A program made the translations under genes and the position numbers. The notes below the pieces were generated by a model. That model was not told where the DNA came from. It did not search any database and saw nothing but the letters and a program-made list of their open reading frames with translations. Below, in pieces: positions 22,155 to 52,757 of a stretch of DNA of 64,000 nucleotides. The number at the start of each line of letters is the position of its first letter. The stretch's first letter is position 1. The stretch is from an uncultured Pseudomonadota bacterium. Lineage in GTDB: Bacteria; Pseudomonadota; Alphaproteobacteria; Rs-D84. The stretch lies in the NCBI GenBank assembly GCA_902787305.1, contig CADAFS010000001.1, positions 16,980 to 80,979 of the forward strand, given 5' to 3'.

Positions 22155-22200
22155 AGCGTTTTTTATTGTTAATACACAATTAAAAGGGGATGGGATTATT

Positions 22201-22373
22201 ATTCCAGAATGCCGTCATCCCGCGGAAGCGCGGGATCCAGGCCGAGCAACGCCGAGGCCCTGCGTCGCAGACAGTTTGTCGTCGCAATGCGACGACAAAT
22301 CCCCTGCGGGGCAAGTTTTTGCATTCGCAAAAACTGGGCACCGCTCTTCAGCGGTGTGACGATTCTCTGGAAT
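22201..22373. repeat. MITE-like cluster of six consecutive perfect hairpins bounded by inverted ATTCCAGA / TCTGGAAT ends
   Basis: Hairpins: TCCCGCG-GAAG-CGCGGGA, GGCC..GGCC, TTTGTCGTCGCA/TGCGACGACAAA, CCCC-TGC-GGGG, AGTTTTTGC-ATTC-GCAAAAACT, CACCGC-TCTTCA-GCGGTG. Confidence 0.75.
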
Positions 22374-22478
22374 TTTAAGTGTCCCGTTTTAATTGGGCAT
22401 TAACATGAAATGTTTTTTGTTTGCTATATCATTTTTCATTATTATAATTCGGTGAATTTTAGATAAAGGTGTTTATGC

Positions 22479-23102: not shown

Positions 23103-23123
23103 GCTCTCTGGAAATTTTTTATT

Positions 23124-23151
23124 TTGAATAAAGTCAAATATGTGATATAGT
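23124..23151 (+). promoter_or_regulatory. Strong sigma70-type promoter (extended -10) of the candidate sRNA
   Basis: TTGAAT-N16-(TGA)TATAGT. Confidence 0.55.
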
Positions 23152-23157
23152 AGAAAT

Positions 23158-23356
23158 GTCGGCGGGTGTTCCGTTGATGTGGTTTGAAAGCCACTGTCCT
23201 AAGGCGTCAATCACGGCGCGACTATTGCGTCGTTATTTTGACGAAAAAATGTTCCTGGCGTTGGCCAGGAAGGCGGCAAAATATTTAATATGCCGCACAA
23301 TTCCTTAGGATTGCTTTCAACCTCCTGGCCACTTGGGTTCGTTCCGGTGGTTTTTT
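23158..23356 (+). ncRNA. Candidate structured small RNA of about 200 nt (class unknown)
   Basis: Bounded by the promoter and a terminator (CCACTTGG..CCGGTGG plus TTTTTT). Nested helices: 23181-23191/23313-23322 and 23196-23204/23303-23311, enclosing three hairpins (23205-23243, 23252-23271 with loop GUUG, 23273-23296). No ORF. Confidence 0.45.
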
Positions 23357-23373
23357 GGTAATAAATACATCTT

Positions 23374-23495
23374 TGTCATTGCGGCCCCCGAGCCGCAATA
23401 GGGAAAAAGAAAGCCCTATGGCGGACCAAGCCCGCCATGACAAAAAAGAAATGGTTGTCATCTTGAACTTGTTTCAGGACCGCCATGACAAAAAA
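23374..23495. repeat. Palindromic repeat units (REP-like)
   Basis: ATTGCGGC-N7-GCCGCAAT and ATGGCGG-ACCAAGC-CCGCCAT. The 29-nt string CCCTATGGCGGACCAAGCCCGCCATGACA (23414-23442) recurs exactly at 52724-52752. Confidence 0.7.
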
Positions 23496-23503
23496 GAGAG
23501 AGC

Positions 23504-23803
23504 ATGAAAAAAGTTTTGGTGATTTTTTTAATTCTTTTTTCGCCGGTGGCGGCGCGGGCGGATGATGGTGTTGTTATGGATGCGGATATGGCGCGGCAAA
23601 TGGAACTTTCGAAATTAAAACGTGAAGTGAGTGAACTTGAAATCAAACTTTCCGAATGCAAACGAAAGAATAAAAATTGGCGCACGGCGACATGGATTGG
23701 TGCGGCGGGAACCGTTGCTACCGGCACAGCGGCGATAGTGCAGGGCGTAAAACTAAATAATTTAAAGAAAGAAAAAGCGAACGCAAAACAAAATGAAAAA
23801 TAA
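23504..23803 (+). CDS. Small exported coiled-coil protein, family A (copy 1)
   Basis: Signal peptide MKKVLVIFLILFSPVAARA, heptad-like ELSKLKREVSELEIKLSEC, then the small-residue hydrophobic segment WIGAAGTVATGTAAIVQGV. Confidence 0.6.
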   Translation: MKKVLVIFLILFSPVAARADDGVVMDADMARQMELSKLKREVSELEIKLSECKRKNKNWRTATWIGAAGTVATGTAAIVQGVKLNNLKKEKANAKQNEK

Positions 23804-24227
23804 AATTGTGATTTTAATTGGAATGTTTGCGTGCTGTGGCGCAATTGCGGAAACGGACTATATCGATATACAAATTCATGAATTGCAACAACGTCGCGAT
23901 GCGTTAAAGGCGGAATTGGACGCATGTGAAGAAAACACGCGTAAATTCAAAATCGCCGGTGTTGCGACGCTGGGCGCAACGGGCGTTGGTGTGGTTGGAA
24001 ACATCGCATTGCATAACGAAATTAAAAAAATCGAACAATCCAAAAATGGTGGTGGGTATGGTGGGGGTGGTTCGGCGGGTACATTAAAAGCGGATACACG
24101 AAGTGAAGTTGAAAAATGGGAGTATCAATGTAAAGAGCAGGGGTATGAAGTGACAATTTGTGATGAATGCAAAGATTGTTGCGCTGCTTCGGGGTGTCCG
24201 TGTAAGGAGGAATGTCCAGATGAATAG
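23793..24227 (+). CDS. Small exported coiled-coil protein, family A (copy 2), with Gly-rich linker and Cys-rich tail
   Basis: Signal/lipobox-like MKNKIVILIGMFACC. ELQQRRDALKAELDAC...KFKIAGVATLGATGVGVVGNIAL parallels copy 1. The tail is CDECKDCCAASGCPCKEECP. It overlaps the previous stop by 11 nt. Confidence 0.6.
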   Translation: MKNKIVILIGMFACCGAIAETDYIDIQIHELQQRRDALKAELDACEENTRKFKIAGVATLGATGVGVVGNIALHNEIKKIEQSKNGGGYGGGGSAGTLKADTRSEVEKWEYQCKEQGYEVTICDECKDCCAASGCPCKEECPDE

Positions 24228-24846
24228 AATATTTATTGGTATCGTTTTGATTGTAATATCGATTGTTTCAGCGTTTGCTATACCAACACTTGCAGACCGA
24301 CAGCATTTGTGTGAATCAAAACCATTAAGTTTTGTTTGGGTTGAAAAGACAAATGCGTGCATACCAATTAATCCTTGTGAATCGCAGGAAGATGATATTC
24401 GTGATGGATATTGTATTCCTTCAATTGCCACAGTTGAATCTGAAAAAAATGCGGAACTTGTTATGCAACGATATACGGAAAAAGTTTTGAATACGCATGT
24501 AATCAATGTAATCCCTATAACATCTAAAGATGATAAGTATTTGATATATCTTGGGGTTCGTACTGCGGATGATTCTTATTATGTTTTTAGATTTTATAAA
24601 CCGTTTGGGATGCCTGTGGCTGATAATTTATTGATTGCTGCATGTTGGGCGTACGGTAAAAGTTATGTTGAACAAGAAACAAAAGAAAATGAATATTGGT
24701 GTACTGTTCATGATGAGAATGAATGTACCGATATAGTAGATTTTGCATCATTGTTGGTTGGTGAAATGGTTTCCGGTGAAATTGTGAACCTTGGAACCAC
24801 GTTATGCAAAATGAATAGAACAACAAACAAAAAGGAGAAAAAATGA
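24220..24846 (+). CDS. Secreted Cys-containing protein, family B (copy 1)
   Basis: RBS TAAGGAGG. Signal peptide ...IVSAFA/IP. Conserved block DRQHLCESKPLSFVWVEKTNACIPINPC...IRDGYCIP and ACWAYGK...ECTDIVDFASLLVGEMVSGEI. The ATG at 24220 overlaps the upstream stop. Confidence 0.65.
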   Translation: MNRIFIGIVLIVISIVSAFAIPTLADRQHLCESKPLSFVWVEKTNACIPINPCESQEDDIRDGYCIPSIATVESEKNAELVMQRYTEKVLNTHVINVIPITSKDDKYLIYLGVRTADDSYYVFRFYKPFGMPVADNLLIAACWAYGKSYVEQETKENEYWCTVHDENECTDIVDFASLLVGEMVSGEIVNLGTTLCKMNRTTNKKEKK

Positions 24847-25547
24847 GAAAAACTGTTGTATCTGTAATCACTGGTTTAACAGTAATTGGTTCGGCTTTTG
24901 CTATACCAAGTCCGGGGGATCGTAAAAAACTGTGTGAATCAAAACCGTTTGATTTTGTATGGGTTGAAAAAACGCAAACCTGTGTCCCTATAAATCCCTG
25001 TACGACATCAAATTCAAAAATTCGTGATGCGTATTGCATACTAGCAGGTGGTGTTGTAGGGGCGGGAGATAACGCAGAAGAAGCAATAAGACGTTATGCA
25101 AAAAGTGTGATGAAAATTGGTGTTGACTCTATCAAATTTGTTGAATCGTCGTATGGAAGACCCGGGTGGTCGCTTCGTACAACAGATGGTGGGTATTATG
25201 TTGTTGAATTCGACGGGTACGCTAAGGGTAAAGATATAAAAGCACAATTAGAGGTCGCATGTTGGGCCTATGGAAAAGAATTGTATTTTTATACGGATGA
25301 CGAAAATCCAAGGTATGGTTGCTTGGGTAGCGTTTCGAAAAAAGAATGTGATGATATGGCCGATTTTGCATCTTTATTGACAGGGAATTTGGTTGAAGGT
25401 GAAATTGAACAGTTGGGGCAAAAAGTATGTTGGTTAACAAATTTTGATGGTTGGTATGAACAAAAAGAAAAATTGCAAGATGGCGTTATATATAATAATT
25501 CTTATCAGTCACAAGGTTCCACGATAGCAACAGGGGTGAGCAATTAG
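24843..25547 (+). CDS. Secreted Cys-containing protein, family B (copy 2)
   Basis: RBS AAGGAG and an ATGA overlap with copy 1. Signal peptide ...IGSAFA/IP. DRKKLCESKPFDFVWVEKTQTCVPINPC...IRDAYCI and ACWAYGK...ECDDMADFASLLTGNLVEGEI. Confidence 0.65.
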   Translation: MRKTVVSVITGLTVIGSAFAIPSPGDRKKLCESKPFDFVWVEKTQTCVPINPCTTSNSKIRDAYCILAGGVVGAGDNAEEAIRRYAKSVMKIGVDSIKFVESSYGRPGWSLRTTDGGYYVVEFDGYAKGKDIKAQLEVACWAYGKELYFYTDDENPRYGCLGSVSKKECDDMADFASLLTGNLVEGEIEQLGQKVCWLTNFDGWYEQKEKLQDGVIYNNSYQSQGSTIATGVSN

Positions 25548-25585
25548 TCTTTGTGTGTAATTATAGAAAATAATGTAAATATAAA

Positions 25586-25612
25586 ACACGGTTGCGATTG
25601 CAACCGTGTTTT
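25586..25612 (+). terminator. Intrinsic terminator after family B copy 2
   Basis: ACACGGTTGC-GATT-GCAACCGTGT followed by TTT. The 31-nt string ATAAAACACGGTTGCGATTGCAACCGTGTTT is repeated at 26523-26553. Confidence 0.7.
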
Positions 25613-25882
25613 ACCAATCCCCCACCTCGTCGCTTTTCGGCGCCACTCCTCCGCAGGAGGAGAACTTTATGCTCTGGAATAATTTTGTAATTATAAAAAC
25701 ATAAAAACACTGATCACTATTTATTAAAATCTAATTCTTTTATTTTTTTCTGTGCAGGGCGAGTTCTCCTCCATTGGAGGAGTACCCGAAGGGGGAGGTG
25801 GTTAGAGTATTCGTTATTTATTTCATATTTTCTAACCACCCCGCCCAGTTCCACTGGGCACCCCTCCACAGGAGGGGAATTA
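25613..25882. repeat. Three copies (mixed orientation) of the GC-rich double-hairpin repeat around an AT-rich core
   Basis: 25617-25680: ..CCCACCTCGTCGCTTTTCGGCGCCACTCCTCCGCAGGAGGAGAACTTTATGCTCTGGAAT. 25762-25806: inverted copy. 25832-25878: CTAACCACCCCGCCCAGTTCCACTGGGCACCCCTCCACAGGAGGGGAAT. Confidence 0.75.
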
Positions 25883-26134
25883 TTATTTATCAAAATCTAA
25901 ATCTTTAATTTTCTCGGCGCGGGGGGTGATTTTGCCGATGGATGTTTGTAATTGTTCTATGTCCGTTTGGGCAAGGTTAAAGTGTTGTGAAACTTTGCCC
26001 GCGCGGTCCGCAAGGCGCGAAAGGTCGGTTAGCAACATGTCGAGTTCGCGTTTAATTTGACCCGCAACACGTTTGATTTTTATGTCTGATAATACTGCGC
26101 GGATTGTGTTTAATGTTGCCCACAATGTCGCTGG
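25883..26134 (-). pseudogene. Duplicated 3' fragment of rmuC (last ~83 codons plus stop)
   Basis: 252 nt matching 32832-33083 with 9 mismatches by eye. It begins exactly at the stop codon and encodes ..LWATLNTIRAVLSDIKIKRVAGQIKRELDML...EKIKDLDFDK. Confidence 0.85.
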
Positions 26135-26498
26135 ATCGTATGTAGGTAATAGGCACAGAGATACCAGTTTATTAGGTCAAGATTTTATACCATATGAACT
26201 AAACGATGGTGGGTATGTTGTGTTCGAATTTGATGATTTGTCAGATATAACAGAATCGCAAATTGCAGATGGGGCTATGGAGGGTGCCTGTTACGTATTC
26301 GATGGTAGTTATTATTTGAACCCTGGATATTGCGCTGGTCTGGAAAATGAGAAATCTTGCGAATCTGTTGCAGAACTTGCTACAGAAGTTAGTGGTCAAG
26401 TTATACATTGGTCATGGAGTGAAAAAGAAGAACTTTTGTCGCCTTCTAGTGAACTGACACATACTATGAAAAGATGTGTGCTAACAGTAGTGGACTAA
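26135..26498 (+). pseudogene. 5'-truncated third copy of secreted family B
   Basis: Only the C-terminal half is present (NDGGYVVFEFDD...GACYVFDG...KSCESVAELATEVSGQVI), aligning with TDGGYYVVEFDG...ACWAYGK...ECDDMADFASLLTGNLVEGEI. The signal peptide and N-domain are replaced by the rmuC fragment. Confidence 0.6.
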
Positions 26499-26529
26499 AT
26501 ATGTTGAAAAAAGTATGATGAAAAATAAA

Positions 26530-26553
26530 ACACGGTTGCGATTGCAACCGTGT
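26530..26553. terminator. Hairpin terminator (second copy), bidirectional; it also serves nth on the minus strand
   Basis: Same stem as 25586-25609. On the minus strand it is followed by TTTTATTTTT. Confidence 0.65.
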
Positions 26554-26561
26554 TTACAAAA

Positions 26562-27209
26562 TTATTTATTACAATCGCAGAGTTTTGCAAGGGGACATGT
26601 TGCACATTTTGGGCGCAGGGCGGTACAGGTATATCGCCCAAACAGTACCATCACATGATTGGTTATCGCGTGATATTTTTTTGGAATTTTCTTTAACAGT
26701 TCAATTTCAACCTTTTCGGGCGTGTTTGCGGAATCCGGCACCCAACCATAACGGTGTGAAAGGCGGAAAACATGCGTATCAACCCCGATATTTGGCGCGT
26801 TCCACAAAACATTTGTGATAACATTTGCGGTCTTTTGCCCGATGCCCGGCAATTTTACAAGTTCCGCGCGGTCGTGATATTTCTGTGGGAAAACAAAATT
26901 ATCTTTGTTCGTTGGAATTTCTTTTAATCGTTCGGCCAATGCGATGATATTTTTTGCCTTGTTATTAAAAAATGAAATAACCCGGATATGTTTTTTCAAA
27001 CCGTCAATTCCCAATTCCAACATTTTTTGCGGTGTTGGGGCCACGCGGAATAGGGCGGGTGTGACCTCGTTCACCTTTTTATCGGTCGCCTGGGCCGACA
27101 AAATTACGGCAACCGCAAATGTAAATTCGTTTACCGAATACAATTCCGAACGAATATCCATATTCAGATTTTTTGGAACAATTTCGAAAAAATCCCGCGG
27201 TGTTATCAT
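26562..27209 (-). CDS. nth: Endonuclease III (DNA-(apurinic/apyrimidinic site) lyase)
   Basis: HhH-GPD motif LVKLPGIGQKTANVITNVLW and Fe-S cluster loop CTALRPKCATCPLAKLC. The ATG at 27209 was chosen because the track start at 27284 overlaps the upstream gene. Confidence 0.9.
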   Translation of the reverse strand: MITPRDFFEIVPKNLNMDIRSELYSVNEFTFAVAVILSAQATDKKVNEVTPALFRVAPTPQKMLELGIDGLKKHIRVISFFNNKAKNIIALAERLKEIPTNKDNFVFPQKYHDRAELVKLPGIGQKTANVITNVLWNAPNIGVDTHVFRLSHRYGWVPDSANTPEKVEIELLKKIPKKYHAITNHVMVLFGRYTCTALRPKCATCPLAKLCDCNK

Positions 27210-27210
27210 T

Positions 27211-27666
27211 TTATTCGGCGCAAATTTCCGCACATTTTTTATTACAATTTGTTTCGGTTGCATCCGGTTCAGACGAATATTCATACACCATCTTTTTTTC
27301 GAATCTTTCGCCGCCTGTTTCGCACACGCATGTTATTTCATTTGTAGCATGGTAACGATCAACCGATTGCCCGTCGTCCAAATCACGCGCCCAAATCTTT
27401 GATTTGAAACGCGAAGAACAACCGGTAAAATTGCCGTGCACGATTTCATCGTTTTTCTTTTCTTCGGTCGCATTATCATCAGATGGGACATCGATAAAGA
27501 AATCTTCCGAATCCACCCGTTCATTTGATTCGTCTGATTCGGAAAATTCCACCGGTTCGACATCATAAGAAATTTCTATGTCAACCGGCATACGAAAACA
27601 CAACCACATCGCACACAGAAACGTTATAACAACACAACCATAAAACAAAAATTTATTTTCTTTCAT
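27211..27666 (-). CDS. Hypothetical membrane-anchored acidic protein with Cys-containing C-terminus
   Basis: 151 aa. TM segment FLFYGCVVITFLCAMWLCF, an acidic linker, and C-terminus CVCETGG...NCNKKCAEICAE. It is packed between ileS and nth. Confidence 0.55.
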   Translation of the reverse strand: MKENKFLFYGCVVITFLCAMWLCFRMPVDIEISYDVEPVEFSESDESNERVDSEDFFIDVPSDDNATEEKKNDEIVHGNFTGCSSRFKSKIWARDLDDGQSVDRYHATNEITCVCETGGERFEKKMVYEYSSEPDATETNCNKKCAEICAE

Positions 27667-27669
27667 TTT

Positions 27670-30600
27670 TTAAGCCTTTTGTATAGAGATTCCAAAGTTA
27701 TACCCTTCGATTTCCGTAAAGTGTTCGGCCGAACCCGGCGACATTTCACGGACAAGCGCGTTCGACATTATCATCTTTTTATGCTGTTCCAACGCACCGG
27801 ACAACGCCAAATCCGCCGTATAGGTAAGATTTATTCGGTCGGACACATCCAAACCCAACGCTTTGCGCGTGTCTTGGATAAAGCGCAACGCGTCGTTCGC
27901 CAAACCTTCGGCAATCAATTCGGAATTTAATTCAGCGTCCAAAATGACAACCGCGGTATTATCCGGCAACGGCATACCCGTCACACCATCGCGGATATTC
28001 AGACGGTTTTCGAATTCATCCGCGTTCAGTGTATAATCGCCGACAACCAACTTATCGCCCGACAATTCGTAGTCACCCCGTTTCACGGCCGGTGCAATTT
28101 CGCGCAACGCACCGCCCAAACGCGCACCGATTTTCGGCGTGATCAAATATATGAAACTGTCCGCGACCTTTGCCGTGTTATCGACCCATTCAACAGATTT
28201 TACATTTAATTCATCGCGAATGATATTCGTATATTCGGTCATAGGTGTGCCGCCCGCAACCGTCAATTTGTTCAGTGGTAAACGATTACGCAATTTGTAT
28301 TGTTCACGCAATTGCTTTCCAACAGACACGATTTCTTGGACACGGCGCATATCGGCGACGATTTTTTCGTCCCCCGCGTTTGCCACCGGCCAATCGGTCA
28401 AATGCACCGATTCCGCACCAGTTAAATTTTTATAGATGTATTCGGATACGAACGGCGCAAGCGGTGCCAAACAGCGGCATACGGTACAAAGCACCGTATA
28501 GAGCGTATTGAACGCGGTTGTGTCTTCATCCCAAAAACGCGTGCGCGAACGACGGATATACCAATTGTTTAGGATGTCCAAGAATCGCACAAATTCTTTG
28601 ACCGCCGTGTCCGGTTTATATTCGTTTAGTGCATTGCCAACCGTATCAACCAAAACGCCTGTTTCCGACAAAATATATTTATCCAAAACATTTCGTGCAT
28701 TTGTCCCCGATACATCGTGTGCCGTCATGTTTCCGGCATTCGCATATAATGTAAAGAAATGATATGCGTTCCAAAGCGGGGTTAAAATCGTCTTTATCGG
28801 TTCGGCAAAAACCTTGCCTTCTTTATCAACGGGAACAGGTTCGGCCTTCATAAAATTACTGCCCAAGATATAAAGTCTAACCGCATCCGCACCATATGCT
28901 TCGAATTGTTCCGATGGGTCAACAAAGTTATGAAGCGATTTTGAAAACTTTCTTTTGTTTTCATCAACAACCATACCATTTGCCGAAACAACACGGAAAG
29001 CCGGTTTATCAAACAGCGCGACCGCTATTACCATTAGAGAATAAAACCAACCACGTGTTTGGTCTTGACCTTCGATGATATAATCCGCCGGGAAAGTTTT
29101 TTCAAATGTATCTTTGTTTTCAAACGGATAGTGCAGGGCCGCAAACGGCATTGAACCCGATTCAAACCAGCAATCCAAAACATCGGGTATGCGTTTCCAA
29201 CCGTCACGCGTTAGTGCATCCAATGTCGGACGATGCAAATCGTCAATCTTTACACCAAAGAATTCTTCGAGTTCCGCAATTGAACCAAAGATTTTATATT
29301 CACCGTCGCGTTCCCAGATTGGTAATGGCACCCCCCAGAAACGGTTGCGCGAAATTCCCCACGGACGCGCGTTTTCAATCCAGGACAAAAATCTATTGCC
29401 CGCCGATGTCCATGTTGTGTCGTTTTTGGTTATTTCAACAAGGCGCTCGCGAATTTTCGGAACATCGATATACCATGCGTCCGTCGCGCGATAGATAAGT
29501 TTTTCCTTGCTGCGTGGGCCGAACGGATAACTGTGCCGGTGCTGATCTTTTTTAACCAAGATTCCATTTGCCCGCAACCAATCAATAATCTTTGGATTGG
29601 CAACAAATATGTTTTCGCCCGCCCATTCGGTGACCGTGTTATCAAAGTTGCCGTAATCGTCAACATTTAATATAACCGGGAATTGCGGGTCAATAGCCTT
29701 GGCCACGATATAGTCGTCTTCACCATACGCCGGCGCGATATGAACGATACCGGTTCCGTCACTGTCCGACACGTAATCGCCGGAAATCACCGTATACAGG
29801 CCGTGCCCATCCTTTGCCAAATCGGTATAATATGGGAAAATCGGTTTATAATGTAATCCAACAAGGTCGGCCCCCATAACCGTCCCCAGGTTTTCGGAGT
29901 TTGCAAAAATCTTGTCATATGCCGAAAGTCGCGATTCCGCCAGAACATAAACATGGCCGTCATCATGACGCATACGAACATATTTCATATTGTTATTCAC
30001 CGCCAATGCCGAATTTGCCGGCAACGTCCATGGTGTTGTTGTCCATGCAATCGCACGGTCGCCATTTGACAGTTCAAACCAAACCGTCACGGTATCGTCA
30101 ACGATATCTTGGTATTCGCTTGACGCTTCGGAATTAGAAAGCACCGTTCCCAATTTCCAATCAAACGGGTTCACTTTGAAATCTTTATAGAGCAACCCAC
30201 GTTCATACATTTGTTTTAATGCCCAAATCACAGATTCCATATAGTTTTTATCCATTGTGCGATAACCATATTCATCGCCACCATCAACCCAACGACCAAC
30301 GCGTTCAATGAAACGCAACCATTCGTTGGTATATGTTGTCACATCGGAACGGCATAAATCACAGAAATGCGCCATACCGTCAGAACCAACAATATCCTTG
30401 GCGGTGCGGCCTTGTTTTTTTTCAACAGATGCCTCCGCCGGCAGGCCATGACAATCCCACCCAAGAACCCGGTCAACATACCGACCGTGCATAGTTTGAA
30501 AGCGTGCAACCATATCTTTGACCGCCGACACCCCAAGGTGCCCCCAATGTGGCAATCCATTTCCAAACGGTGGCCCATCGTAAAATGTGAATGGATGCCC

Positions 30601-30714
30601 AAGTTTCGTTTTGTTCAAACTTTTGTGGAAAGTATCGTCCCCGCGCCAAAACTCTATTATTTCATGTTCCAGTTTCGGAAAATCGGCCTTTGGTTCGGTC
30701 TTTGGATATGCCAT
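27670..30714 (-). CDS. ileS: Isoleucine--tRNA ligase (long, type-2-like form)
   Basis: 1014 aa. HIGH-type motif PHWGHLG, KMSKS-type KFSKSLHN, and a CP1 editing domain. Confidence 0.95.
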   Translation of the reverse strand: MAYPKTEPKADFPKLEHEIIEFWRGDDTFHKSLNKTKLGHPFTFYDGPPFGNGLPHWGHLGVSAVKDMVARFQTMHGRYVDRVLGWDCHGLPAEASVEKKQGRTAKDIVGSDGMAHFCDLCRSDVTTYTNEWLRFIERVGRWVDGGDEYGYRTMDKNYMESVIWALKQMYERGLLYKDFKVNPFDWKLGTVLSNSEASSEYQDIVDDTVTVWFELSNGDRAIAWTTTPWTLPANSALAVNNNMKYVRMRHDDGHVYVLAESRLSAYDKIFANSENLGTVMGADLVGLHYKPIFPYYTDLAKDGHGLYTVISGDYVSDSDGTGIVHIAPAYGEDDYIVAKAIDPQFPVILNVDDYGNFDNTVTEWAGENIFVANPKIIDWLRANGILVKKDQHRHSYPFGPRSKEKLIYRATDAWYIDVPKIRERLVEITKNDTTWTSAGNRFLSWIENARPWGISRNRFWGVPLPIWERDGEYKIFGSIAELEEFFGVKIDDLHRPTLDALTRDGWKRIPDVLDCWFESGSMPFAALHYPFENKDTFEKTFPADYIIEGQDQTRGWFYSLMVIAVALFDKPAFRVVSANGMVVDENKRKFSKSLHNFVDPSEQFEAYGADAVRLYILGSNFMKAEPVPVDKEGKVFAEPIKTILTPLWNAYHFFTLYANAGNMTAHDVSGTNARNVLDKYILSETGVLVDTVGNALNEYKPDTAVKEFVRFLDILNNWYIRRSRTRFWDEDTTAFNTLYTVLCTVCRCLAPLAPFVSEYIYKNLTGAESVHLTDWPVANAGDEKIVADMRRVQEIVSVGKQLREQYKLRNRLPLNKLTVAGGTPMTEYTNIIRDELNVKSVEWVDNTAKVADSFIYLITPKIGARLGGALREIAPAVKRGDYELSGDKLVVGDYTLNADEFENRLNIRDGVTGMPLPDNTAVVILDAELNSELIAEGLANDALRFIQDTRKALGLDVSDRINLTYTADLALSGALEQHKKMIMSNALVREMSPGSAEHFTEIEGYNFGISIQKA

Positions 30715-30742
30715 TTTTTACTCCATTATTTGCAATTATCAT

Positions 30743-30768
30743 AAAAAAACGGGCGCATCTGCGCCCGG
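30743..30768 (-). terminator. Intrinsic terminator inside the ileS 5' leader (candidate attenuator)
   Basis: On the minus strand: CGGGCGC-AGAT-GCGCCCG followed by TTTTTTT, ending 29 nt upstream of the ileS ATG. No upstream minus-strand gene is available for it to terminate. Confidence 0.65.
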
Positions 30769-30793
30769 GCCATCGCCAAAGCGCAAGGCCAGA

Positions 30794-30829
30794 TTATCTT
30801 ATAATAATGATTGTTTTTTTGTTCATCAT
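30794..30829 (-). CDS. Candidate Ile-rich leader peptide MMNKKTIIIIR
   Basis: ATG ATG AAC AAA AAA ACA ATC ATT ATT ATA AGA TAA. Four consecutive Ile codons lie 25 nt upstream of the terminator stem. A TATAAT sits at 30842-30847 (minus strand). Confidence 0.5.
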   Translation of the reverse strand: MMNKKTIIIIR

Positions 30830-30921
30830 GCGCAGTAGTCTATTATACAAAATACAATATTTCAAGTATTTTTTGACAAACCGTATATTTAATATAAAAT
30901 CAACAAAAAAAGGATTTAAGC

Positions 30922-31551
30922 ATGAAAGACGAAAATTTTGAAAATCTTGCGTATTTTATGGGTCGGTTGTTAAAGCCGTTTGTTGCGATTTGGGCGCCCG
31001 TCTATGCACTACAAAAAGTACGATGCGAAATTGCCGACCCACAAAAAATAGACGAACCACTTGAACTTGGCAAAAGCATAAGAAAACATACCAATGCTTT
31101 TATGAAAAACAAAGTGCATGCGTTGCCTGATTATTTTTTTAATCGGGCCTGGACATACAACGAATGGCGCAAACAAAAATATGACAATTCGTATACCGTG
31201 CCTATTAATGTGCAACCTGAAATTGATGAAAAACAAATTGGCGACATTGTTGCAAAGTTAGAGTTTGCTCCTGTGCTTCATGTTTCTTATTTTGAAAAAA
31301 CAGAACATCAACCACGGGTGCCGTCATTGTGTAATTTTGGGGACTATGTTATTCAATTTTCATCGGCCGGAACCGAATGGTGTGGTGGTATGCGCGGGAA
31401 TGGATATATCTCAAAAAAAATGCCGGACAGAACACGGGAACCAATTTGCACAATTTCACCAGACCTTTCTGATTATTTGGCGGAAGTTGCACATGTACAG
31501 TATGAATTGATGAAAACGAAAGATAGGTTATCAATGTTTTGTGCGCGATAA
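30922..31551 (+). CDS. Hypothetical protein (209 aa)
   Basis: RBS AAAGGA. No recognised motif. Confidence 0.55.
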   Translation: MKDENFENLAYFMGRLLKPFVAIWAPVYALQKVRCEIADPQKIDEPLELGKSIRKHTNAFMKNKVHALPDYFFNRAWTYNEWRKQKYDNSYTVPINVQPEIDEKQIGDIVAKLEFAPVLHVSYFEKTEHQPRVPSLCNFGDYVIQFSSAGTEWCGGMRGNGYISKKMPDRTREPICTISPDLSDYLAEVAHVQYELMKTKDRLSMFCAR

Positions 31552-31553
31552 CA

Positions 31554-31740
31554 ATTTGCTACAGCCCGCCTTCGCCGATAAGTGTGAAGTTTTTTTCTTT
31601 GGTTGCGACCAATGCTACGGCGAGGCACTCAAAAATTTTAATCGCGCACTTTATTGTGCGCGATAACAGATAATATCTGGAATTTCTGTCCGTCTTCGTG
31701 CGTTTCACGCACTCCGCCGTGACACTCAATTTTCTTAACT
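31554..31740. repeat. Palindromic repeat cluster, with 15-bp direct repeats at 31539-31553 and 31654-31668
   Basis: TTGTGCGCGATAACA occurs twice. Hairpins: GCCTTCGCCG..CGGCGAGGC, ATCGCGCAC-N6-GTGCGCGAT, GTGCG-TTTCA-CGCAC. An ATCTGGAAT motif lies at 31674-31682. Confidence 0.55.
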
Positions 31741-31768
31741 AAAAATCCCGCAAAATGCGAGATTTTTA
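31741..31768 (-). terminator. Intrinsic terminator downstream of tRNA-Thr
   Basis: Minus strand: ATCTCGC-ATTTT-GCGGGAT followed by TTTTT. Confidence 0.6.
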
Positions 31769-31782
31769 CTAACGAAAATTGG

Positions 31783-31858
31783 TGGTGCCGGTGATAAGAC
31801 TCGAACTTACGACCCCCTCATTACGAATGAGATGCTCTACCAACTGAGCTACACCGGC
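31783..31858 (-). tRNA. tRNA-Thr (anticodon CGU), CCA encoded
   Basis: GCCGGTG-TA-GCTC-AGTTGGTA-GAGC-A-TCTCA-TTCGTAA-TGAGG-GGGTC-GTAAG-TTCGAGT-CTTAT-CACCGGC-A-CCA (hand fold). Confidence 0.9.
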
Positions 31859-31982
31859 GTTCCGTGACACATACTTTACAGAACAATATATCCTTTTTCA
31901 AGTATTTTCCGCGTTATTTTTTTTCGACCATATTGTATTGTTGCTGTGGGTATGTTTCCCGGCTTTTTTACAATTTTTTTAC

Positions 31983-32003
31983 AAAAAAGCCGGCGATGCC
32001 GGC
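31983..32003 (-). terminator. Intrinsic terminator after the VirB2-like / micro-ORF unit
   Basis: GCCGGC-ATC-GCCGGC followed on the minus strand by TTTTTTG. It is nested in a longer AT-rich inverted repeat. Confidence 0.55.
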
Positions 32004-32042
32004 CTAAATGATAAAAATGTTTAAAAATGCCGGAAAATTTTT

Positions 32043-32120
32043 TTACAACGCCAACATATACCCACACACCAATATCCCAAGTGTCACAAGAACGTAAACA
32101 ATTTTATCTTTGGTTGTCAT
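32043..32120 (-). CDS. Candidate 25-aa hydrophobic micro-protein MTTKDKIVYVLVTLGILVCGYMLAL
   Basis: Below the ORF-track length cut-off. It lies 27 nt downstream of the VirB2-like gene, has a single TM-like segment, and precedes the terminator. Confidence 0.3.
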   Translation of the reverse strand: MTTKDKIVYVLVTLGILVCGYMLAL

Positions 32121-32147
32121 TTTTGATAACATTATTTCCACCTTTGG

Positions 32148-32528
32148 TTACCATGTTTTTAATTCGTTTGCACACTCAACAATTCTTCCGCTAAGCAGTG
32201 CAGAAAGCACAATACCGATTGAAAATAGCAACACAAATCCAATTATCATCGGCACACCAACGGTTTTGACTCCTTCGACCATATTGTCTTTGCTGTTGAT
32301 TTTACCGGTGGTGATGGCTTCCCATGCATATTTTGCAAGGATAAATCCAGCCCCCACGAACGCCAACGTTCGCAATGTTCCAAACACACCTTTTAGTTTT
32401 GTGATAAGGTCGCACAAACCACTGTCCGTCCCAATGGCGGCAAATGTCGGTGATGACATCATGAACACCGCCACAGATGTTTGTATGCGTAGCAACGCAG
32501 TTTTTGTTTTGTTCATCATTTTCTCCAT
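32148..32528 (-). CDS. TrbC/VirB2-family type IV secretion pilin-like protein
   Basis: Long signal peptide (..MMSSPTFA/A), then two hydrophobic helices separated by a polar loop (LRTLAFVGAGFILAKYAW ... VGVPMIIGFVLLFSIGIVLSALL), the classical VirB2 layout. Starts at 32519 or 32516 are also possible, with the SD GGAG at 32523-32526. Confidence 0.5.
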   Translation of the reverse strand: MEKMMNKTKTALLRIQTSVAVFMMSSPTFAAIGTDSGLCDLITKLKGVFGTLRTLAFVGAGFILAKYAWEAITTGKINSKDNMVEGVKTVGVPMIIGFVLLFSIGIVLSALLSGRIVECANELKTW

Positions 32529-32712
32529 TTTCGTTGTGTTAAACGGAACCGCACATTTACTATGCGGTTGGAGGTTGATGACAATACTCAGGAATTGTGT
32601 CGCTATTCAATATATTCGCGACCCTCCAACCACAGGTTGGAGTTTTTCGTCCGTTTTATGGACGCCTGAATATGGGTCATCACACCCAATTCCGATACAC
32701 CCGTATCAGAAC
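32529..32712 (-). promoter_or_regulatory. Long structured 5' leader of the VirB2-like gene
   Basis: About 184 nt between the predicted promoter and the ATG. Outer pairings TGATGAC/GTCATCA and TCAGG/CCTGA enclose three hairpins. CTCCAACC occurs twice and can pair either with GGTTGGAG or with the SD GGAG. Confidence 0.4.
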
Positions 32713-32718
32713 GTTTCA

Positions 32719-32747
32719 ATTATAACAGCAAACCGTGAATTTTGCAA
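32719..32747 (-). promoter_or_regulatory. Sigma70 consensus-like promoter of the VirB2-like gene
   Basis: TTGCAA-N17-TATAAT on the minus strand. Confidence 0.6.
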
Positions 32748-32831
32748 TTTTAAAAAAACAAGAAAAATTTTGTCGTTTTTTTATTGAATCGAATCCTGTC
32801 AGCACAAAGTGGTGCCGCGGCAGGTAAAGAT

Positions 32832-33083
32832 TTATTTATCAAAATCCAGTTCTTTAATCTTTTCTGCGCGGGGGGTGATTTTGCCGATGGATGTTTGTAA
32901 TTGTTCTATGTCCGTTTGGGCAAGGTTAAAGTGTTGTGAAACTTTGCCCGCGCGGTCGGCAAGGCGCGAAAGGTCGGTTAGCAACATGTCGAGTTCGCGT
33001 TTAATTTGACCCGCAACACGTTTGATTTTTATGTCTGATAATACCGCGCGGATTGTGTTTAATGTTGCCCACAATGTCGCCGG
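32832..33083. repeat. Master copy of the 252-bp direct repeat (rmuC 3' end)
   Basis: Matches 25883-26134 in the same orientation, 6.95 kb away. Confidence 0.85.
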
Positions 33084-33710
33084 TGAAACGATAAATACTT
33101 TTCTGCGTGCGGCATATTCTATGGTACCCGGGAATTCGCGGTGTAATGTTTCAAATATGGATTCAGATGCTATGAACATCATTGCAACCTCGGCCGTTTT
33201 GCCGGGGATAATGTATTTTTCCGCAATTGCATCGATGTGTTTGCGGACGTCCAATTCGAATTGTTTGCGATACGGTTCCGGGTTTTCGCCGTTCATCATA
33301 TGATTGTATGATTCCAATGGAAATTTACTGTCGATAATCATGTCGCCCGGCGGATAGGGCAGGCGGATTATGCAATCGGGCCGTACGCCCGTATCCAATA
33401 CACTTTGAAATGCGTATGTTTCGGGTGGCATGATGTCGGCGATTAAATCCGCAAGTTGCCGTTCGCCGAATGTGCCGCGCGCCTGTTTATTGCCCATAAG
33501 GATATTTTTGAAATTCGCGATATCCGAACTGATGTTTTTAAGTTCAATCGCATTTTGCGACAGTGCGCCAAGCCGTTCAGAAAGCCGTTCGCGCAGGCGG
33601 GCGTTGTCTTCGCGCAGTGCCGACATATCCGTTGTTGCCGGCCGCATAAGCAGCGCGCCCAGCATGATGATTATAACCGTGCACATCGCAATCAAAATAT
33701 AAGTTGTCAT
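32832..33710 (-). CDS. rmuC: DNA recombination protein RmuC
   Basis: N-terminal TM segment (MTTYILIAMCTVIIIMLGALL), a coiled coil, and a RmuC nuclease-like core (GERQLADLIADIMP...RPDCIIRLP...IIDSKFPLESY). The track start at 33959 overlaps def and is rejected. Confidence 0.85.
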   Translation of the reverse strand: MTTYILIAMCTVIIIMLGALLMRPATTDMSALREDNARLRERLSERLGALSQNAIELKNISSDIANFKNILMGNKQARGTFGERQLADLIADIMPPETYAFQSVLDTGVRPDCIIRLPYPPGDMIIDSKFPLESYNHMMNGENPEPYRKQFELDVRKHIDAIAEKYIIPGKTAEVAMMFIASESIFETLHREFPGTIEYAARRKVFIVSPATLWATLNTIRAVLSDIKIKRVAGQIKRELDMLLTDLSRLADRAGKVSQHFNLAQTDIEQLQTSIGKITPRAEKIKELDFDK

Positions 33711-33753
33711 TTGGAAATCCTTTGCTATCATTTTATTATAAAAGGATTTATGT

Positions 33754-34254
33754 ATGTTGCAAATGAAACTTTGTGGCGATTTGGTGTTGCGGGAAAAATG
33801 TGCGCCCGTGGATGCCATAACGCCGGAAATTTTGCAGAATATGGACGAAATGGTGAAAATGATGTCCGAACAAAATGGGGTTGGCCTTGCCGCACCCCAG
33901 GTTGGTGTGTTGCAACGGTTCTTGGTTATGATGAATCCCGACACAAATGAAGTTTTCAAAATGATAAATCCGGTGATTTTGTCACGCAGTGATGAAACTG
34001 TCGTTATGGAGGAAGGTTGTCTTTCTGTGCTGGGGCCCGATGGGTTGCCGGTCTATGCCAATGTGACACGGCCGGCGGTCGTCACGGTCGAATGGACGGA
34101 TGTGGACGGAAATCGGCGCGCGGCGGAAATGTCCGGGTTGCCCGCGCGGATTGTGCAACATGAAACCGACCATTTGGACGGGATTTTATTTATTGACTAT
34201 CTGTCGCCGGTAAAGCGGGAAATGGTTATGCGCAAGGTAAGGCGGCGGAAATGA
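33754..34254 (+). CDS. def: Peptide deformylase
   Basis: Motifs GVGLAAPQVG, EGCLS, HETDHLDG. Confidence 0.95.
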   Translation: MLQMKLCGDLVLREKCAPVDAITPEILQNMDEMVKMMSEQNGVGLAAPQVGVLQRFLVMMNPDTNEVFKMINPVILSRSDETVVMEEGCLSVLGPDGLPVYANVTRPAVVTVEWTDVDGNRRAAEMSGLPARIVQHETDHLDGILFIDYLSPVKREMVMRKVRRRK

Positions 34255-35054: not shown

Positions 35055-35797
35055 TGACGCGATATAAAGTAATCTTGGAATACGATGGAACGAATCTGAT
35101 TGGGTGGCAAGAAAATCGCCAGGGGCCGTCGGTGCAATCGTTGCTAAAAGACGCAATAGAAAAATTCTGTGGTGCGCGACCGGATGTCGTTGGTGCGGGG
35201 CGGACGGATGCGGGGGTGCATGCGATTGCAATGTGTGCACATTTTGATTTGAATTCCGGGGCGGATGCAAATACGGTTATGCGGGCGGTGAATTTTTACC
35301 TGAATGATGCGCCGGTGTCGGTGGTTGATTGCGAAATTGTTCCCGATGATTTTAATGCGCGTTTTTCATGTGTTATGCGGCACTATAAATATATCGTTCT
35401 AAATCGTTCCGCACCGCCGGTGTTGGATAAGAATCGTGCTTGGTGGGTGCCACGGAAATTAAATGTTAAAAAAATGCGTGATGCGGCGCGGACTTTGGTT
35501 GGAAAACATGATTTTACATCGTTTCGTGCGTCGCAGTGCCAGGCGAAAAGCCCGATAAAAACCCTTGATTCTTGCCGTATAGAGAAAAAAGATGATTTAA
35601 TCGTTTTTGATTTTTCGGCGCGTTCATTTTTGCATCACCAGGTTCGAAATATGGTTGGAACATTGGTTGAAATTGGGCTTGGTACACCATATGATATAAA
35701 TGAAATTTTTGCGGCGCGTAATCGTTCGGCGGCGGGGGCAACGGCACCGGCGTGTGGACTTTATTTTATTCAGGCCGATTATGCCACCACCGATTAG
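35054..35797 (+). CDS. truA: tRNA pseudouridine(38-40) synthase TruA
   Basis: YKVILEYDGTNLIGWQ, catalytic GAGRTDAGVHA. TAATG overlap with fmt. Confidence 0.9.
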   Translation: MTRYKVILEYDGTNLIGWQENRQGPSVQSLLKDAIEKFCGARPDVVGAGRTDAGVHAIAMCAHFDLNSGADANTVMRAVNFYLNDAPVSVVDCEIVPDDFNARFSCVMRHYKYIVLNRSAPPVLDKNRAWWVPRKLNVKKMRDAARTLVGKHDFTSFRASQCQAKSPIKTLDSCRIEKKDDLIVFDFSARSFLHHQVRNMVGTLVEIGLGTPYDINEIFAARNRSAAGATAPACGLYFIQADYATTD

Positions 35798-52488: not shown

Positions 52489-52757
52489 AAGTGTAAGTGT
52501 TAGTGGTTAGTGTTAGTCCGTCACGACCGCGGCGCGGCGTGCCGCGACGGGTGCGCGGGGCAAAAGCCCCGCATTTTTTTGCCTCATACTTTTTTGTCAT
52601 TCCGGACAGGTGTCACCCACGAAAAATTTTATTTTTCGTGGGGCCCGTGGTCCGGAATAGGGCTAAGTAGTTGTGACGAATATTTCGTAATAAATTTGTG
52701 TTATTCGTCACAGGTTTTACAGACCCTATGGCGGACCAAGCCCGCCATGACAATTCT
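52489..52757. repeat. Heptad array plus palindromic repeat cluster
   Basis: GTGTAAGTGTTAGTGGTTAGTGTTAGT, then nested hairpins (ATTCCGGAC...GTCCGGAAT, CCCACGAAAAAT..TTTTTCGTGGG, TGTGACGAATA..TTATTCGTCACA) and the exact 29-nt repeat at 52724-52752. Confidence 0.75.
52555..52580 (+). terminator. Intrinsic terminator after yebC (embedded in the repeat cluster)
   Basis: GCGGGG-CAAAAG-CCCCGC followed by ATTTTTTT. Confidence 0.6.

Follow-up and report, generated by a model that had tools for sequence, protein, structure and literature searches.

The stretch of DNA analysed here (the window, 64,000 nucleotides, positions 16,980 to 80,979 of the forward strand of contig CADAFS010000001.1 in assembly GCA_902787305.1) comes from an uncultured alphaproteobacterium of the Rs-D84 lineage. 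At positions 23504 to 25547 it contains four tightly packed genes for small proteins, here called A1, A2, B1 and B2. The products may form an exported, disulfide-stabilised complex, in which the core is conserved and the outer parts can be exchanged, and which would serve as a variable module of the envelope or cell surface. This reading, drawn from patterns in the sequences, appears plausible, although we would stop short of calling it probable. In the proposed arrangement, A1 and A2 would pair in parallel and in register, and a bond between their core cysteines would staple the heterodimer, or a higher oligomer, in the periplasm. The zipper helices of the two proteins would lie together, either within a membrane or in the hydrophobic groove of a protein. 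The A2 tail would be oxidised, and hence located outside the cytoplasm, and would dock on the N-terminal domain (N-domain) of B. The part of B that is exposed and functional would be its variable domain, which would act as a variable surface or contact module for a bacterium that depends on partners. The operon would be switched on together with other exported or envelope proteins, by read-through of a terminator in its leader RNA.

All four genes lie on the forward strand, and the list of open reading frames (ORFs) places A1 at 23504-23803 (99 aa), A2 at 23793-24227 (144 aa), B1 at 24220-24846 (208 aa from the ATG, with a longer GTG start at 24160) and B2 at 24843-25547 (234 aa). The coordinates and the start/stop overlaps of 11 nt (A1/A2), 8 nt (A2/B1) and 4 nt (B1/B2) are as described in a first-pass annotation of the window, which had been made from the sequence alone. 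The good ribosome-binding sites that it reported before the last two genes are also present, AAGGAGG about 10 nt 5' of the B1 start and AGGAG 6 nt 5' of the B2 start. The Shine-Dalgarno sequence of A1 is weak (GAGAGAG). A2 lacks one altogether and starts within the 3' end of A1, which suggests translational coupling. The operon genes are functional and under purifying selection. They are confirmed as real genes under coding constraint, and not chance ORFs, because the ratio of nonsynonymous to synonymous substitutions (dN/dS) in orthologue pairs is 0.08-0.31 over all four genes (A1 0.19-0.26, B1 0.17-0.31).

By classical criteria, all four proteins have predicted Sec-type signal peptides, with a K/R n-region, a hydrophobic core and an AxA-type cleavage site. 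Cleavage is predicted between ARA and DD in A1, between AIA and ET in A2, and between AFA and IP in both B1 and B2. A crude heuristic finds the same features in 95/103 A1, 99/104 A2 and 151/161 B relatives, in each case more than 90%, in agreement with the earlier assignment of signal peptides to all four products. With respect to kinship, B1 and B2 are 39% identical (E=6e-48), and B2 is a B1 paralogue with an additional low-complexity C-terminal tail. A1 and A2 are 23% identical (E=1e-4), and their profiles cross-match each other's family, with a best E-value of 4e-8. The cassette had been described as two tandemly duplicated families. Both paralogies are upheld, but A1 and A2 are an old, obligatory pair and not the result of a recent duplication; only B was duplicated.

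The two families had not been recognised by eye, and database searches gave the same answer. No A1, A2, B1 or B2 match reached a family cut-off in Pfam or NCBIfam, and PHROGs and PADLOC returned nothing for the four proteins. The best matches of A1 are to Pox_A_type_inc (19.4 vs 21.4 bits, a coiled-coil repeat) and to alph_xenorhab_A (22.2 vs 125 bits), and for A2, B1 and B2 there is no meaningful match in either Pfam or NCBIfam. Sequences in the PDB were matched neither by the B profile nor by the A2 profile, nor by the A2 tail alone. The motifs that had been quoted for families A and B in the window are conserved throughout the families.

A1 consists of a signal peptide, a coiled coil with the core cysteine C52, a basic, Trp-containing juxtamembrane motif, a Gly/Ala/Thr zipper helix and a Lys-rich tail free of cysteine. 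A2 has a signal peptide, a coiled coil with the core cysteine C45, a glycine-zipper helix, a Gly-rich linker, a DTRSE motif and a hypervariable, Cys-rich tail, which contains 8 Cys in the window copy. As far as can be read from the alignments, the two paralogues each have one long predicted helix, in which the a/d stripe runs unbroken from the coiled coil into the zipper. In 52 A2 sequences, a stripe with 3-4 spacing is invariant or nearly so (I24, I28, L31, R35, L38, L/I42, C45, T49, F/Y52, G56, T59, T63, G66, N70, L73, I77 and I80), with C45, T49, G56, T59, T63, G66, N70 and L73 fully invariant at a/d positions. The stripe corresponds to one helix of about 57 residues, which begins as an ordinary coiled coil. 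Beyond the invariant cysteine there is a basic and aromatic collar (RKFK in A2, KRKNKNW in A1), and past this collar the core of the helix is small or polar (G, T, T, G, N), with Val, Ile and Leu on the outer face. Read from its sequence, A1 keeps the A2 register from C52 to L87.

The distribution of the cysteines is strict. On the N-terminal side of the zipper there is exactly one in 102/102 A2 members and in 92/92 A1 members, and on the C-terminal side there is none in any of the 92 A1 members. The ORFs and the Cys pattern of the window are conserved in relatives. The A2 tails, which follow the Gly-rich linker and a conserved DTRSEEQK-like motif, fall into discrete, mutually unrelated classes. 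With 2, 4, 6, 8 or 10 Cys, the count is even in 101/102 clusters. A single unpaired core cysteine in each partner, combined with an even count in the tail, is as expected from a periplasmic interchain disulfide and intramolecular disulfides within the tail. By a simple Hessa sum, the zipper scores about +4 kcal/mol, which at the level of this crude estimate is marginal for autonomous stop-transfer. Such marginal hydrophobicity fits passage through Sec that is followed by assembly of an oligomer.

The same features can be arranged differently. They also match the textbook layout of type I bitopic inner-membrane proteins, namely a signal peptide, a short ectodomain and about 20 hydrophobic residues with Lys/Arg and Trp/Phe on the flanks, and in A1 a Lys-rich tail. 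With the signal peptide cleaved off, A1 and A2 would then have periplasmic coiled coils, the glycine zipper would be a stop-transfer anchor, and both C-termini would be cytoplasmic. The A2 tail would bind metal there, and B would be a periplasmic partner or ligand-binding subunit, in what would be a small envelope sensor or scaffold and not a surface structure. The commonest tail classes, with 4 or 8 Cys in CxxC, CC and CxC spacings as in metallothioneins and zinc knuckles, would suit a metal site. However, 24 clusters have 2 Cys and no His in the tail, and counts of 6 and 10 are also found. The tail is moreover acidic and hypervariable, and it travels with the exported N-domain of B, all of which would be unusual for a cytoplasmic domain. 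Charge is balanced across the zipper, so that the positive-inside rule gives no decision on the orientation, and the Hessa sum, crude as it is, predicts a poor stop-transfer sequence. We regard this topology as rather unlikely.

A marginally hydrophobic Gly-zipper helix after a coiled coil is also seen in ClyA/XaxAB-type toxins and in glycine-zipper channels. A1 and A2 could thus be a small binary alpha-helical toxin, secreted in soluble form, that forms pores or inserts into membranes, with B as chaperone or as receptor-binding or targeting subunit. The adjacent, translationally coupled A1 and A2 genes would be in keeping with a binary toxin, the variable parts could bind receptors, and a partner-dependent lifestyle would gain from the tapping of other cells. 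There are also sub-threshold matches of A1 to alpha-xenorhabdolysin A (E=7e-5) and of A2 to the translocon protein SseD (E=0.12). These matches are confined to the coiled coil and the Gly/Ala/Thr-rich stretch, however, and are probably compositional; that of A1 scores 22 vs 125 bits and covers 62 residues. Alpha-xenorhabdolysin and ClyA-type toxins are about 350-400 aa long and have a long coiled-coil tail and a head domain with a hydrophobic hairpin. Mature A1 (about 80 aa) and mature A2 (about 125 aa) contain neither the head nor the tail domain of known alpha-pore-forming toxins. At the sites read, the neighbours of the operon include no gene for immunity or export, and the near-universal presence of the operon, in several copies per genome, would suit a structural component better. 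An alpha-xenorhabdolysin or ClyA-type identity was rejected on the score and extent of the A1 match and the small size of the protein, and a toxin of the more general kind appears unlikely.

Other families with glycine-rich membrane helices or lipid anchors were considered and rejected. For the glycine-zipper outer-membrane lipoproteins (Rick_17kDa_Anti, Gly-zipper_Omp) and the Braun lipoprotein (Lpp), which would call for a lipobox Cys at +1, there is no Pfam match, and the cleavage sites are of the AxA type. A C-terminal Lys, through which Lpp is linked to peptidoglycan, is present in most A1 proteins, but it lies within a Lys-rich tail and is hence uninformative. A lipoprotein reading of A2 and B fails because a Cys near the cleavage site is not conserved: the cysteine in the A2 signal peptide is missing in many relatives, for example those in clusters P0015 and P0016. 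A TrbC/VirB2 pilin (PF04956) was also rejected, since A1 and A2 have no match to this family at E<=1 and each contains only one hydrophobic stretch after the signal peptide, whereas such pilins have two hydrophobic helices behind a long signal peptide.

In the B family, the invariant residues (C31, VWVEKT at 39-44, C47, P49, P52, C53, Y64 and C65) cluster in the first 45 or so residues of the mature protein. They belong to a conserved N-domain with four cysteines in the pattern C-x15-C-x5-C-x11-C and the WVEKT motif. This is followed by a variable alpha/beta domain with 4 further cysteines, and the commonest total in B is 8. An AlphaFold2 model of B2 was obtained with a predicted local distance difference test (pLDDT) score of 79.6 and a predicted template modelling (pTM) score of 0.74. 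It consists of a small N-terminal knot and three units of a helix plus a beta-hairpin. Membership in a known fold was to be accepted at a Foldseek E<=1e-3 together with a TM-score above about 0.5. A Foldseek search of the PDB and BFVD with the B2 model gave nothing at E<=0.001, and the best TM-scores on the query were 0.23 and 0.25, respectively. To judge by the model, B thus appears to have no structural relative in the PDB or BFVD, which supports the earlier impression of a novel family.

Word-indexed searching found 13 B clusters only, whereas an exhaustive profile search yielded 268 representatives at 50% identity, all of them single-domain proteins of about 200-230 aa. The A2 and A1 families comprise 104 and 103 clusters, respectively. 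Relatives of A1, A2 and B that have a name at all are called 'hypothetical protein'. In reference genomes, B relatives are found only in Candidatus Enterousia and in unnamed alphaproteobacterial metagenome-assembled genomes from rumen and gut. The A1-A2-B operon is restricted to Candidatus Enterousia and related Rs-D84 Alphaproteobacteria, which bears out the symbiont-like alphaproteobacterial setting suggested at the outset. Enterousia (order Rs-D84) are described as rod-shaped gut bacteria with genomes of about 0.75-1.0 Mb, in which many membrane proteins are uncharacterised. Respiration is absent, as are most biosynthetic pathways and the usual transporters, and an obligate life as symbiont or parasite of other cells is predicted (PMC12306168). 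An origin of the operon from a phage or plasmid was rejected, because searches of mobile-element collections came back empty: B2 had no tblastn match in phage and plasmid collections, A2 had none in plasmid collections, and neither B nor the leader was found in the viral contigs that were scanned.

The A1-A2-B order, with overlapping or closely abutting genes, occurs in at least 14 loci from different genomes (loci from Rs-D84 metagenome contigs are numbered from L001 to L123). A1 and A2 occur together in every complete locus. The first-pass annotation had asked whether A-A-B-B co-occurs in relatives. This is the case for A1-A2-B, but the second B gene is seen only in the window, L001 and L005. 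The basic unit is a three-gene operon, in which B was duplicated only in the clade of these three loci. There are at least two copies of the operon per genome. One 360-kb contig holds two of them about 40 kb apart (L018 and L019), one of which sits between tatC and a LysM/M23 peptidase gene. This site is conserved, as the operon of L020 and L021 occupies the same position. Clusters P0026 and P0291 suggest that the genome of the window also has a second operon, probably on the contig of the window itself, since their longest contig has the length (192,548 bp) that is given for the proteins of the window.

A yardstick for the divergence of the operon is provided by the syntenic neighbours that the window shares with L011 and L014. 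In all three, the order is AcrB-family transporter, HAD hydrolase, operon, rmuC. LepA was dropped for this purpose, because the window ORF of equal length is not LepA. At this common site, the neighbouring proteins of the window and L011 are 75-87% identical, as compared to 69% for A1, 51% for A2 and 32-37% for B. The synteny also argues against an accessory pocket, the term that had been used for the surroundings; the arrangement of HAD gene, operon and rmuC was disrupted only later, by an insertion of 6.7 kb. Elsewhere in the window, a ComEC-family competence protein (35766-37697, reverse strand) is 59-62% identical to its L011 and L014 orthologues, at a level of 81-87% for most neighbours, and is another fast-evolving envelope protein.

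Divergence is not spread evenly within the operon. The segment 23347-24101, which comprises the end of the leader, A1 and the N-terminal part of A2, is 88-92% identical to L008 and L019, which lie in other genomic contexts. The match stops in the A2 linker, which places a mosaic breakpoint near 24070-24101. Downstream of it, the A2 tail, B1 and B2 resemble only L001 and L005 (76%). In the presumed second operon of the same genome, the last 74 residues of A1 are identical to those of the window copy and the N-terminal part of A2 has 2 differences, but the A2 tail is a different one. A near-identical stalk combined with a different tail indicates that stalks evolve in concert and that distal modules are exchanged. 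Antigenic variation by gene conversion, as in pilE/pilS or msp2/p44, would have a single expression site, several promoterless, 5'-truncated donor copies and variants that arise within a population. Observed here were one 5'-truncated open copy (the B3 remnant described below), clear mosaicism and concerted evolution, but each full copy has its own promoter and leader.

The class of the A2 tail tracks the subtype of the first part of the B N-domain, across differing stalk types and differing B C-terminal domains (C-domains). Tails of the SSCxEF…EECKK class go with the subtype GIKETCLxHPDKLV in 3/3 loci, tails ending in …GCEC with DRKA(L/M)CE(K/G)HP(D/E)KYV in 5/6 loci, and tails of the 8-Cys window type with CESKPxxFV in 3/3 loci. 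This linkage fits an interface between tail and N-domain, and the proposed docking of the A2 tail on the B N-domain rests on the fact that the two are always inherited as one block. A toxin and immunity pair was considered as an explanation and rejected, because the signal peptide marks B as exported and there is no covariation between tail and B C-domain. The same tail class is found with different B C-domains (L008 vs L009), similar B types are found with different tails, and only the first part of the B N-domain follows the tail class.

Several points weigh against the exported, stapled complex. The AlphaFold2 model of A2, built with 52 sequences, is unusable at its pLDDT of 49. Some B genes stand alone behind a leader of their own, as in L010, so that an adjacent A pair is not strictly needed; further standalone B genes are found in L012, L013 and L016. 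Cytoplasmic tails with Zn(Cys)4-type sites would likewise have an even number of cysteines, although the 24 two-Cys clusters argue against zinc, and a zipper that acts as an ordinary stop-transfer anchor in the inner membrane would leave the A2 tail in the cytoplasm. Averaged over pairs of sequences, dN/dS gives no sign of positive selection, and the fast divergence may reflect replacement of modules instead of diversifying selection. The linkage between tail and N-domain could stem from the mere adjacency of two recombination hot spots. Finally, a route across the outer membrane was not identified. Surface context speaks for the complex, as the same promoter and leader also precede genes for List_Bact_rpt and other signal-peptide proteins and, in the window, for a sub-threshold VirB2-like pilin. 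So do the predicted dependence of the organism on partner cells and its many uncharacterised membrane proteins.

The operon has its own promoter at 23111-23151 on the forward strand, with an A/T-rich, UP-like tract, the -35 element TTGAAT, a 16-nt spacer and the extended -10 element TGATATAGT; a promoter scan locates it at 23124-23151. The pattern TTGnnn, 16-17 nt spacer, TGnTAnnAT lies 160-350 nt upstream of A1 in 14/14 loci examined, and in L008, L009, L018 and L019 the promoter is 95-100% identical despite differing flanking genes. It is followed by a structured 5' leader RNA of about 190-200 nt (23157-23356, forward strand), as judged from a predicted fold and covariation. The fold comprises a P1 hairpin, a long-range closing stem round three hairpins, and a terminator-like hairpin with a run of six U residues (23351-23356). 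Its minimum free energy is -86.7 kcal/mol (z=-6.1), and a second single sequence has the same architecture (z=-7.5). In an RNAalifold analysis of 49 non-redundant copies, 17 of 31 pairs have compensatory changes. In these copies, 97.3% of the cells are paired, vs 86% after shuffling and 37-56% with slid partners, and double-change cells number 189 vs 51. The observed values were reached by 0/500 shuffles. The invariance of the P4 helix stems in part from its use as search pattern, and the covariation is located in P1 and in the long-range stem.

A leader of about 170-250 nt that ends in a hairpin and U-run follows the promoter in 13/14 loci. The only operon without a detectable one is that of L015 (7040-7199), where a (CA)n microsatellite lies upstream and the A1 ORF is seemingly 5'-truncated; decay or phase variation of this operon is therefore possible. 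The distance between U-run and A1 is as short as about 20 nt in L001, so that transcription of the operon must pass through the leader terminator. A duplicate of the 5' arm of one internal hairpin lies immediately ahead of the terminator, and the two covary (most copies have CUCCAACC, the window has UCCUGGCC). The duplicated arm may permit an alternative pairing and hence act as a switch. The leader could be a new riboswitch-like attenuator or a multicopy small RNA (sRNA). Since junction and terminator are both formed in the minimum-energy prediction, it may instead be such an sRNA with read-through, or the target of a protein antiterminator. Rfam contains no credible match at E<=1; the sole overlap is with sRNA-Xcc1 (24.5 bits vs 53, E=0.54), which is at chance level.

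A candidate sRNA had been noted upstream of the cassette. It is the operon's own promoter-proximal structured leader, with two copies in the window and more than 100 in Rs-D84 metagenome contigs (loci L001-L123). A scan of metagenomes for the leader yielded 102 stretches, and because only about 9/103 pattern instances precede A1-A2-B, we rejected the idea that the leader is specific to this operon. The other copies mostly precede genes for signal-peptide proteins (9/54 with List_Bact_rpt domains), but also XRE regulators, DNA methyltransferases and many proteins without a family. The remainder of the 5' untranslated region (UTR) of the window operon (23357-23503, forward strand) consists of palindromic repeats resembling repetitive extragenic palindromic (REP) elements, and a direct repeat, CCGCCATGACAAAAAAGA, supplies the weak ribosome-binding site of A1. 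This segment is present in L008 and absent from L001, L011, L014, L019 and L020, where A1 begins 20-40 nt after the U-run. A 30-bp repeat within it (23414-23443) recurs at 52724-52753. Short REP-like repeats are dispersed in the window, also at 22180-22403, and similar elements, which read '...IPRFRGMT...' or '...IPLFSGMT...' when translated, are inserted in the operon 5' UTRs of L018, L071 and L104.

The second leader copy of the window (32714-32541, reverse strand, E=6e-26) directly precedes a 126-aa ORF (32148-32528, reverse strand) that is TrbC/VirB2-like below the threshold (E=5e-4, 20.7 bits vs 27.9). Its product has two hydrophobic helices behind a long signal peptide. Next comes a 32-aa ORF (32043-32141, reverse strand) that looks like a single transmembrane segment. 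A VirB2-like gene behind another copy of promoter and leader raises the thought that the operon itself is an accessory part of a type IV secretion system (T4SS) or conjugative-type pilus, for example as minor pilins or tip adhesin. Such a role is most improbable. A1, A2 and B have no match to TrbC/VirB2 or other T4SS families at E<=1. At the sites that were read (Pfam lists for four loci, synteny for L011 and L014), no T4SS genes lie beside the operon. The leader, finally, precedes many unrelated genes, so that sharing it does not imply one machine.

The cassette had been likened to an amplified surface or secreted module, with host interaction, the envelope or a bacteriocin-like role as options. 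Its character as an accessory and fast-evolving surface or secreted module, as opposed to a housekeeping function, is retained. The bacteriocin-like option lacks specific support, as there is no double-glycine leader, exporter or immunity gene. A class II bacteriocin or microcin was likewise rejected, in view of the Sec-type signal peptides and of the lack of a transporter or peptidase gene adjoining the operon at the sites read. A bolder form of the surface complex can be conceived, in which the disulfide-stapled stalk of coiled coil and glycine zipper spans the outer membrane or enters the membrane of a partner, and presents the exchangeable Cys-rich tail and B heads for attachment or tapping. 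It would belong to a regulon of surface proteins, with the VirB2-like pilin among them, under a new class of leader RNA with many copies per genome, an attenuator that is riboswitch-like or responds to an antiterminator. We regard this picture as doubtful. The probability that remains goes to functions outside the readings considered here.

The region downstream of the operon is rearranged. A terminator scan finds a palindromic terminator-like element at 25581-25614, 34 nt 3' of the B2 stop. Its 31-bp core (AAAACACGGTTGCGATTGCAACCGTGTTT, 25581-25611) recurs with 100% identity at 26525-26555, after the stop of a B3 remnant, and also 3' of the L018 B gene (90-97% identity). The element probably works as a terminator in both directions and moves along with the operon. 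Between 25619 and 25879, three dispersed hairpin repeats of the type CTCCTCC-N-GGAGGAG, which resemble Shine-Dalgarno and anti-Shine-Dalgarno sequences, were read from the sequence; they match both flanks of the L008 operon with 82-100% identity. A 249-bp duplicate of the rmuC 3' end follows at 25883-26131 (reverse strand), 96.8% identical to 32832-33080. The true rmuC is the ORF 32832-33959 (Pfam RmuC, E=2e-56). Since rmuC is located directly 3' of the operon in L011 and L014, the duplicate marks a rearrangement junction.

Relative to these two loci, a block of 6.7 kb (26132-32831) has been inserted between the operon and rmuC. It contains the B3 remnant, nth, a 151-aa ORF, ileS, a 209-aa ORF, a tRNA-Thr gene and the VirB2-like gene. 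The decayed third B copy that had been noted downstream is indeed present (B3, 26132-26498, forward strand), and matches the C-terminal half of B2 with E=4e-8. The ORF at this place runs from 26073 to 26498, and its first 20 or so codons belong to the rmuC duplicate. B3 is 5'-truncated and lacks the signal peptide and the N-domain, but about 120 codons are open as far as the natural stop. Its type differs from that of B1 and B2 and is closest to L007, L009 and L018, with whose B proteins it shares 40-42% identity. The 151-aa ORF (27211-27666, reverse strand) and the start of nth overlap by 74 nt. Its product, for which there is no family match, begins with a hydrophobic anchor, is acidic in the middle and is rich in Cys towards the C-terminus.

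We rate the operon as new at the level of families and architecture, on a theme that is familiar, the variable exported proteins of a host-dependent bacterium. Rs-D84 bacteria, Enterousia among them, are widespread in the guts of humans and livestock and are thought to live off other cells. A genome of less than 1 Mb keeps few non-essential genes, and yet there are at least two copies of the operon, with purifying selection and reshuffled outer modules. An operon that is retained, constrained and reshuffled in so small a genome is a prime candidate for the interface with a partner or host. In view of the lack of sequence relatives of the A and B families outside the lineage, and of a PDB or BFVD fold relative of B, the proteins are good targets for structural and functional work. 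The operon is confined to a narrow lineage, and the leader RNA is a separate, testable discovery. It provides a handle on a whole surface-protein regulon and may itself be a new class of regulatory RNA.

With respect to regulation, the leader is similar to riboswitch attenuators in being promoter-proximal, in having a multi-helix junction with covariation, and in ending with a terminator just before the coding region. The segment CCUCCAACC (CCUCCUGGCC in the window) adds to the likeness, as it duplicates one arm (5') of an internal hairpin, covaries with that arm and so allows an alternative pairing. A riboswitch normally controls one pathway. In contrast, the leader precedes heterogeneous genes (surface proteins, XRE regulators, methyltransferases), has no evident ligand and belongs to no Rfam family. 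A1 and A2 share with XaxAB/YaxAB (NCBIfam NF033928) and with glycine-zipper membrane proteins the adjacent paralogous genes and the succession of a coiled coil and a Gly-rich hydrophobic helix. They are 3-4 times smaller than XaxAB/YaxAB, however, have no head or tail domains, and have a predicted interchain cysteine and a Cys-rich tail instead.

Multigene systems of variable surface proteins in host-dependent bacteria with small genomes are known from Mycoplasma (vsp/vlp, with a shared 5' UTR and signal peptide), and from Anaplasma (msp2/p44) and Neisseria (pilE/pilS), which have 5'-truncated donor copies. Like them, and on grounds other than homology, the operon is multicopy in a small genome, mosaic, and codes for exported-looking proteins. 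A near-identical 5' module (promoter, leader, A1 and the N-terminal part of A2) is joined to divergent 3' modules, and there is a 5'-truncated B3 with a frame that is still open. In contrast to these systems, a single expression site is lacking, since every full copy comes with a promoter of its own; truncated copies number only one, and no invertible element or simple-repeat switch was found. The unit is made up of three proteins, not of a single lipoprotein or pilin, and the proteins are unrelated in sequence or fold to those of the known systems. The comparison with polymorphic toxin loci (CdiA-CT/CdiI, Rhs) has a similar outcome. In A2, too, a conserved N-terminal part and a short conserved motif (DTRSEEQK) precede a hypervariable C-terminal module, of which there are several discrete classes. 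This module is co-inherited with the beginning of the gene behind it, and a truncated, orphan-like copy lies downstream. However, the A2 tail is only 30-60 aa long, Cys-rich and without an enzyme domain, and there is no large delivery domain or secretion partner. Unlike a cytoplasmic immunity protein, B is exported and has a conserved N-domain, and its C-domain varies independently of the tail class. Without the defining features of either, the system behaves like both variable surface-gene families and polymorphic toxin loci.

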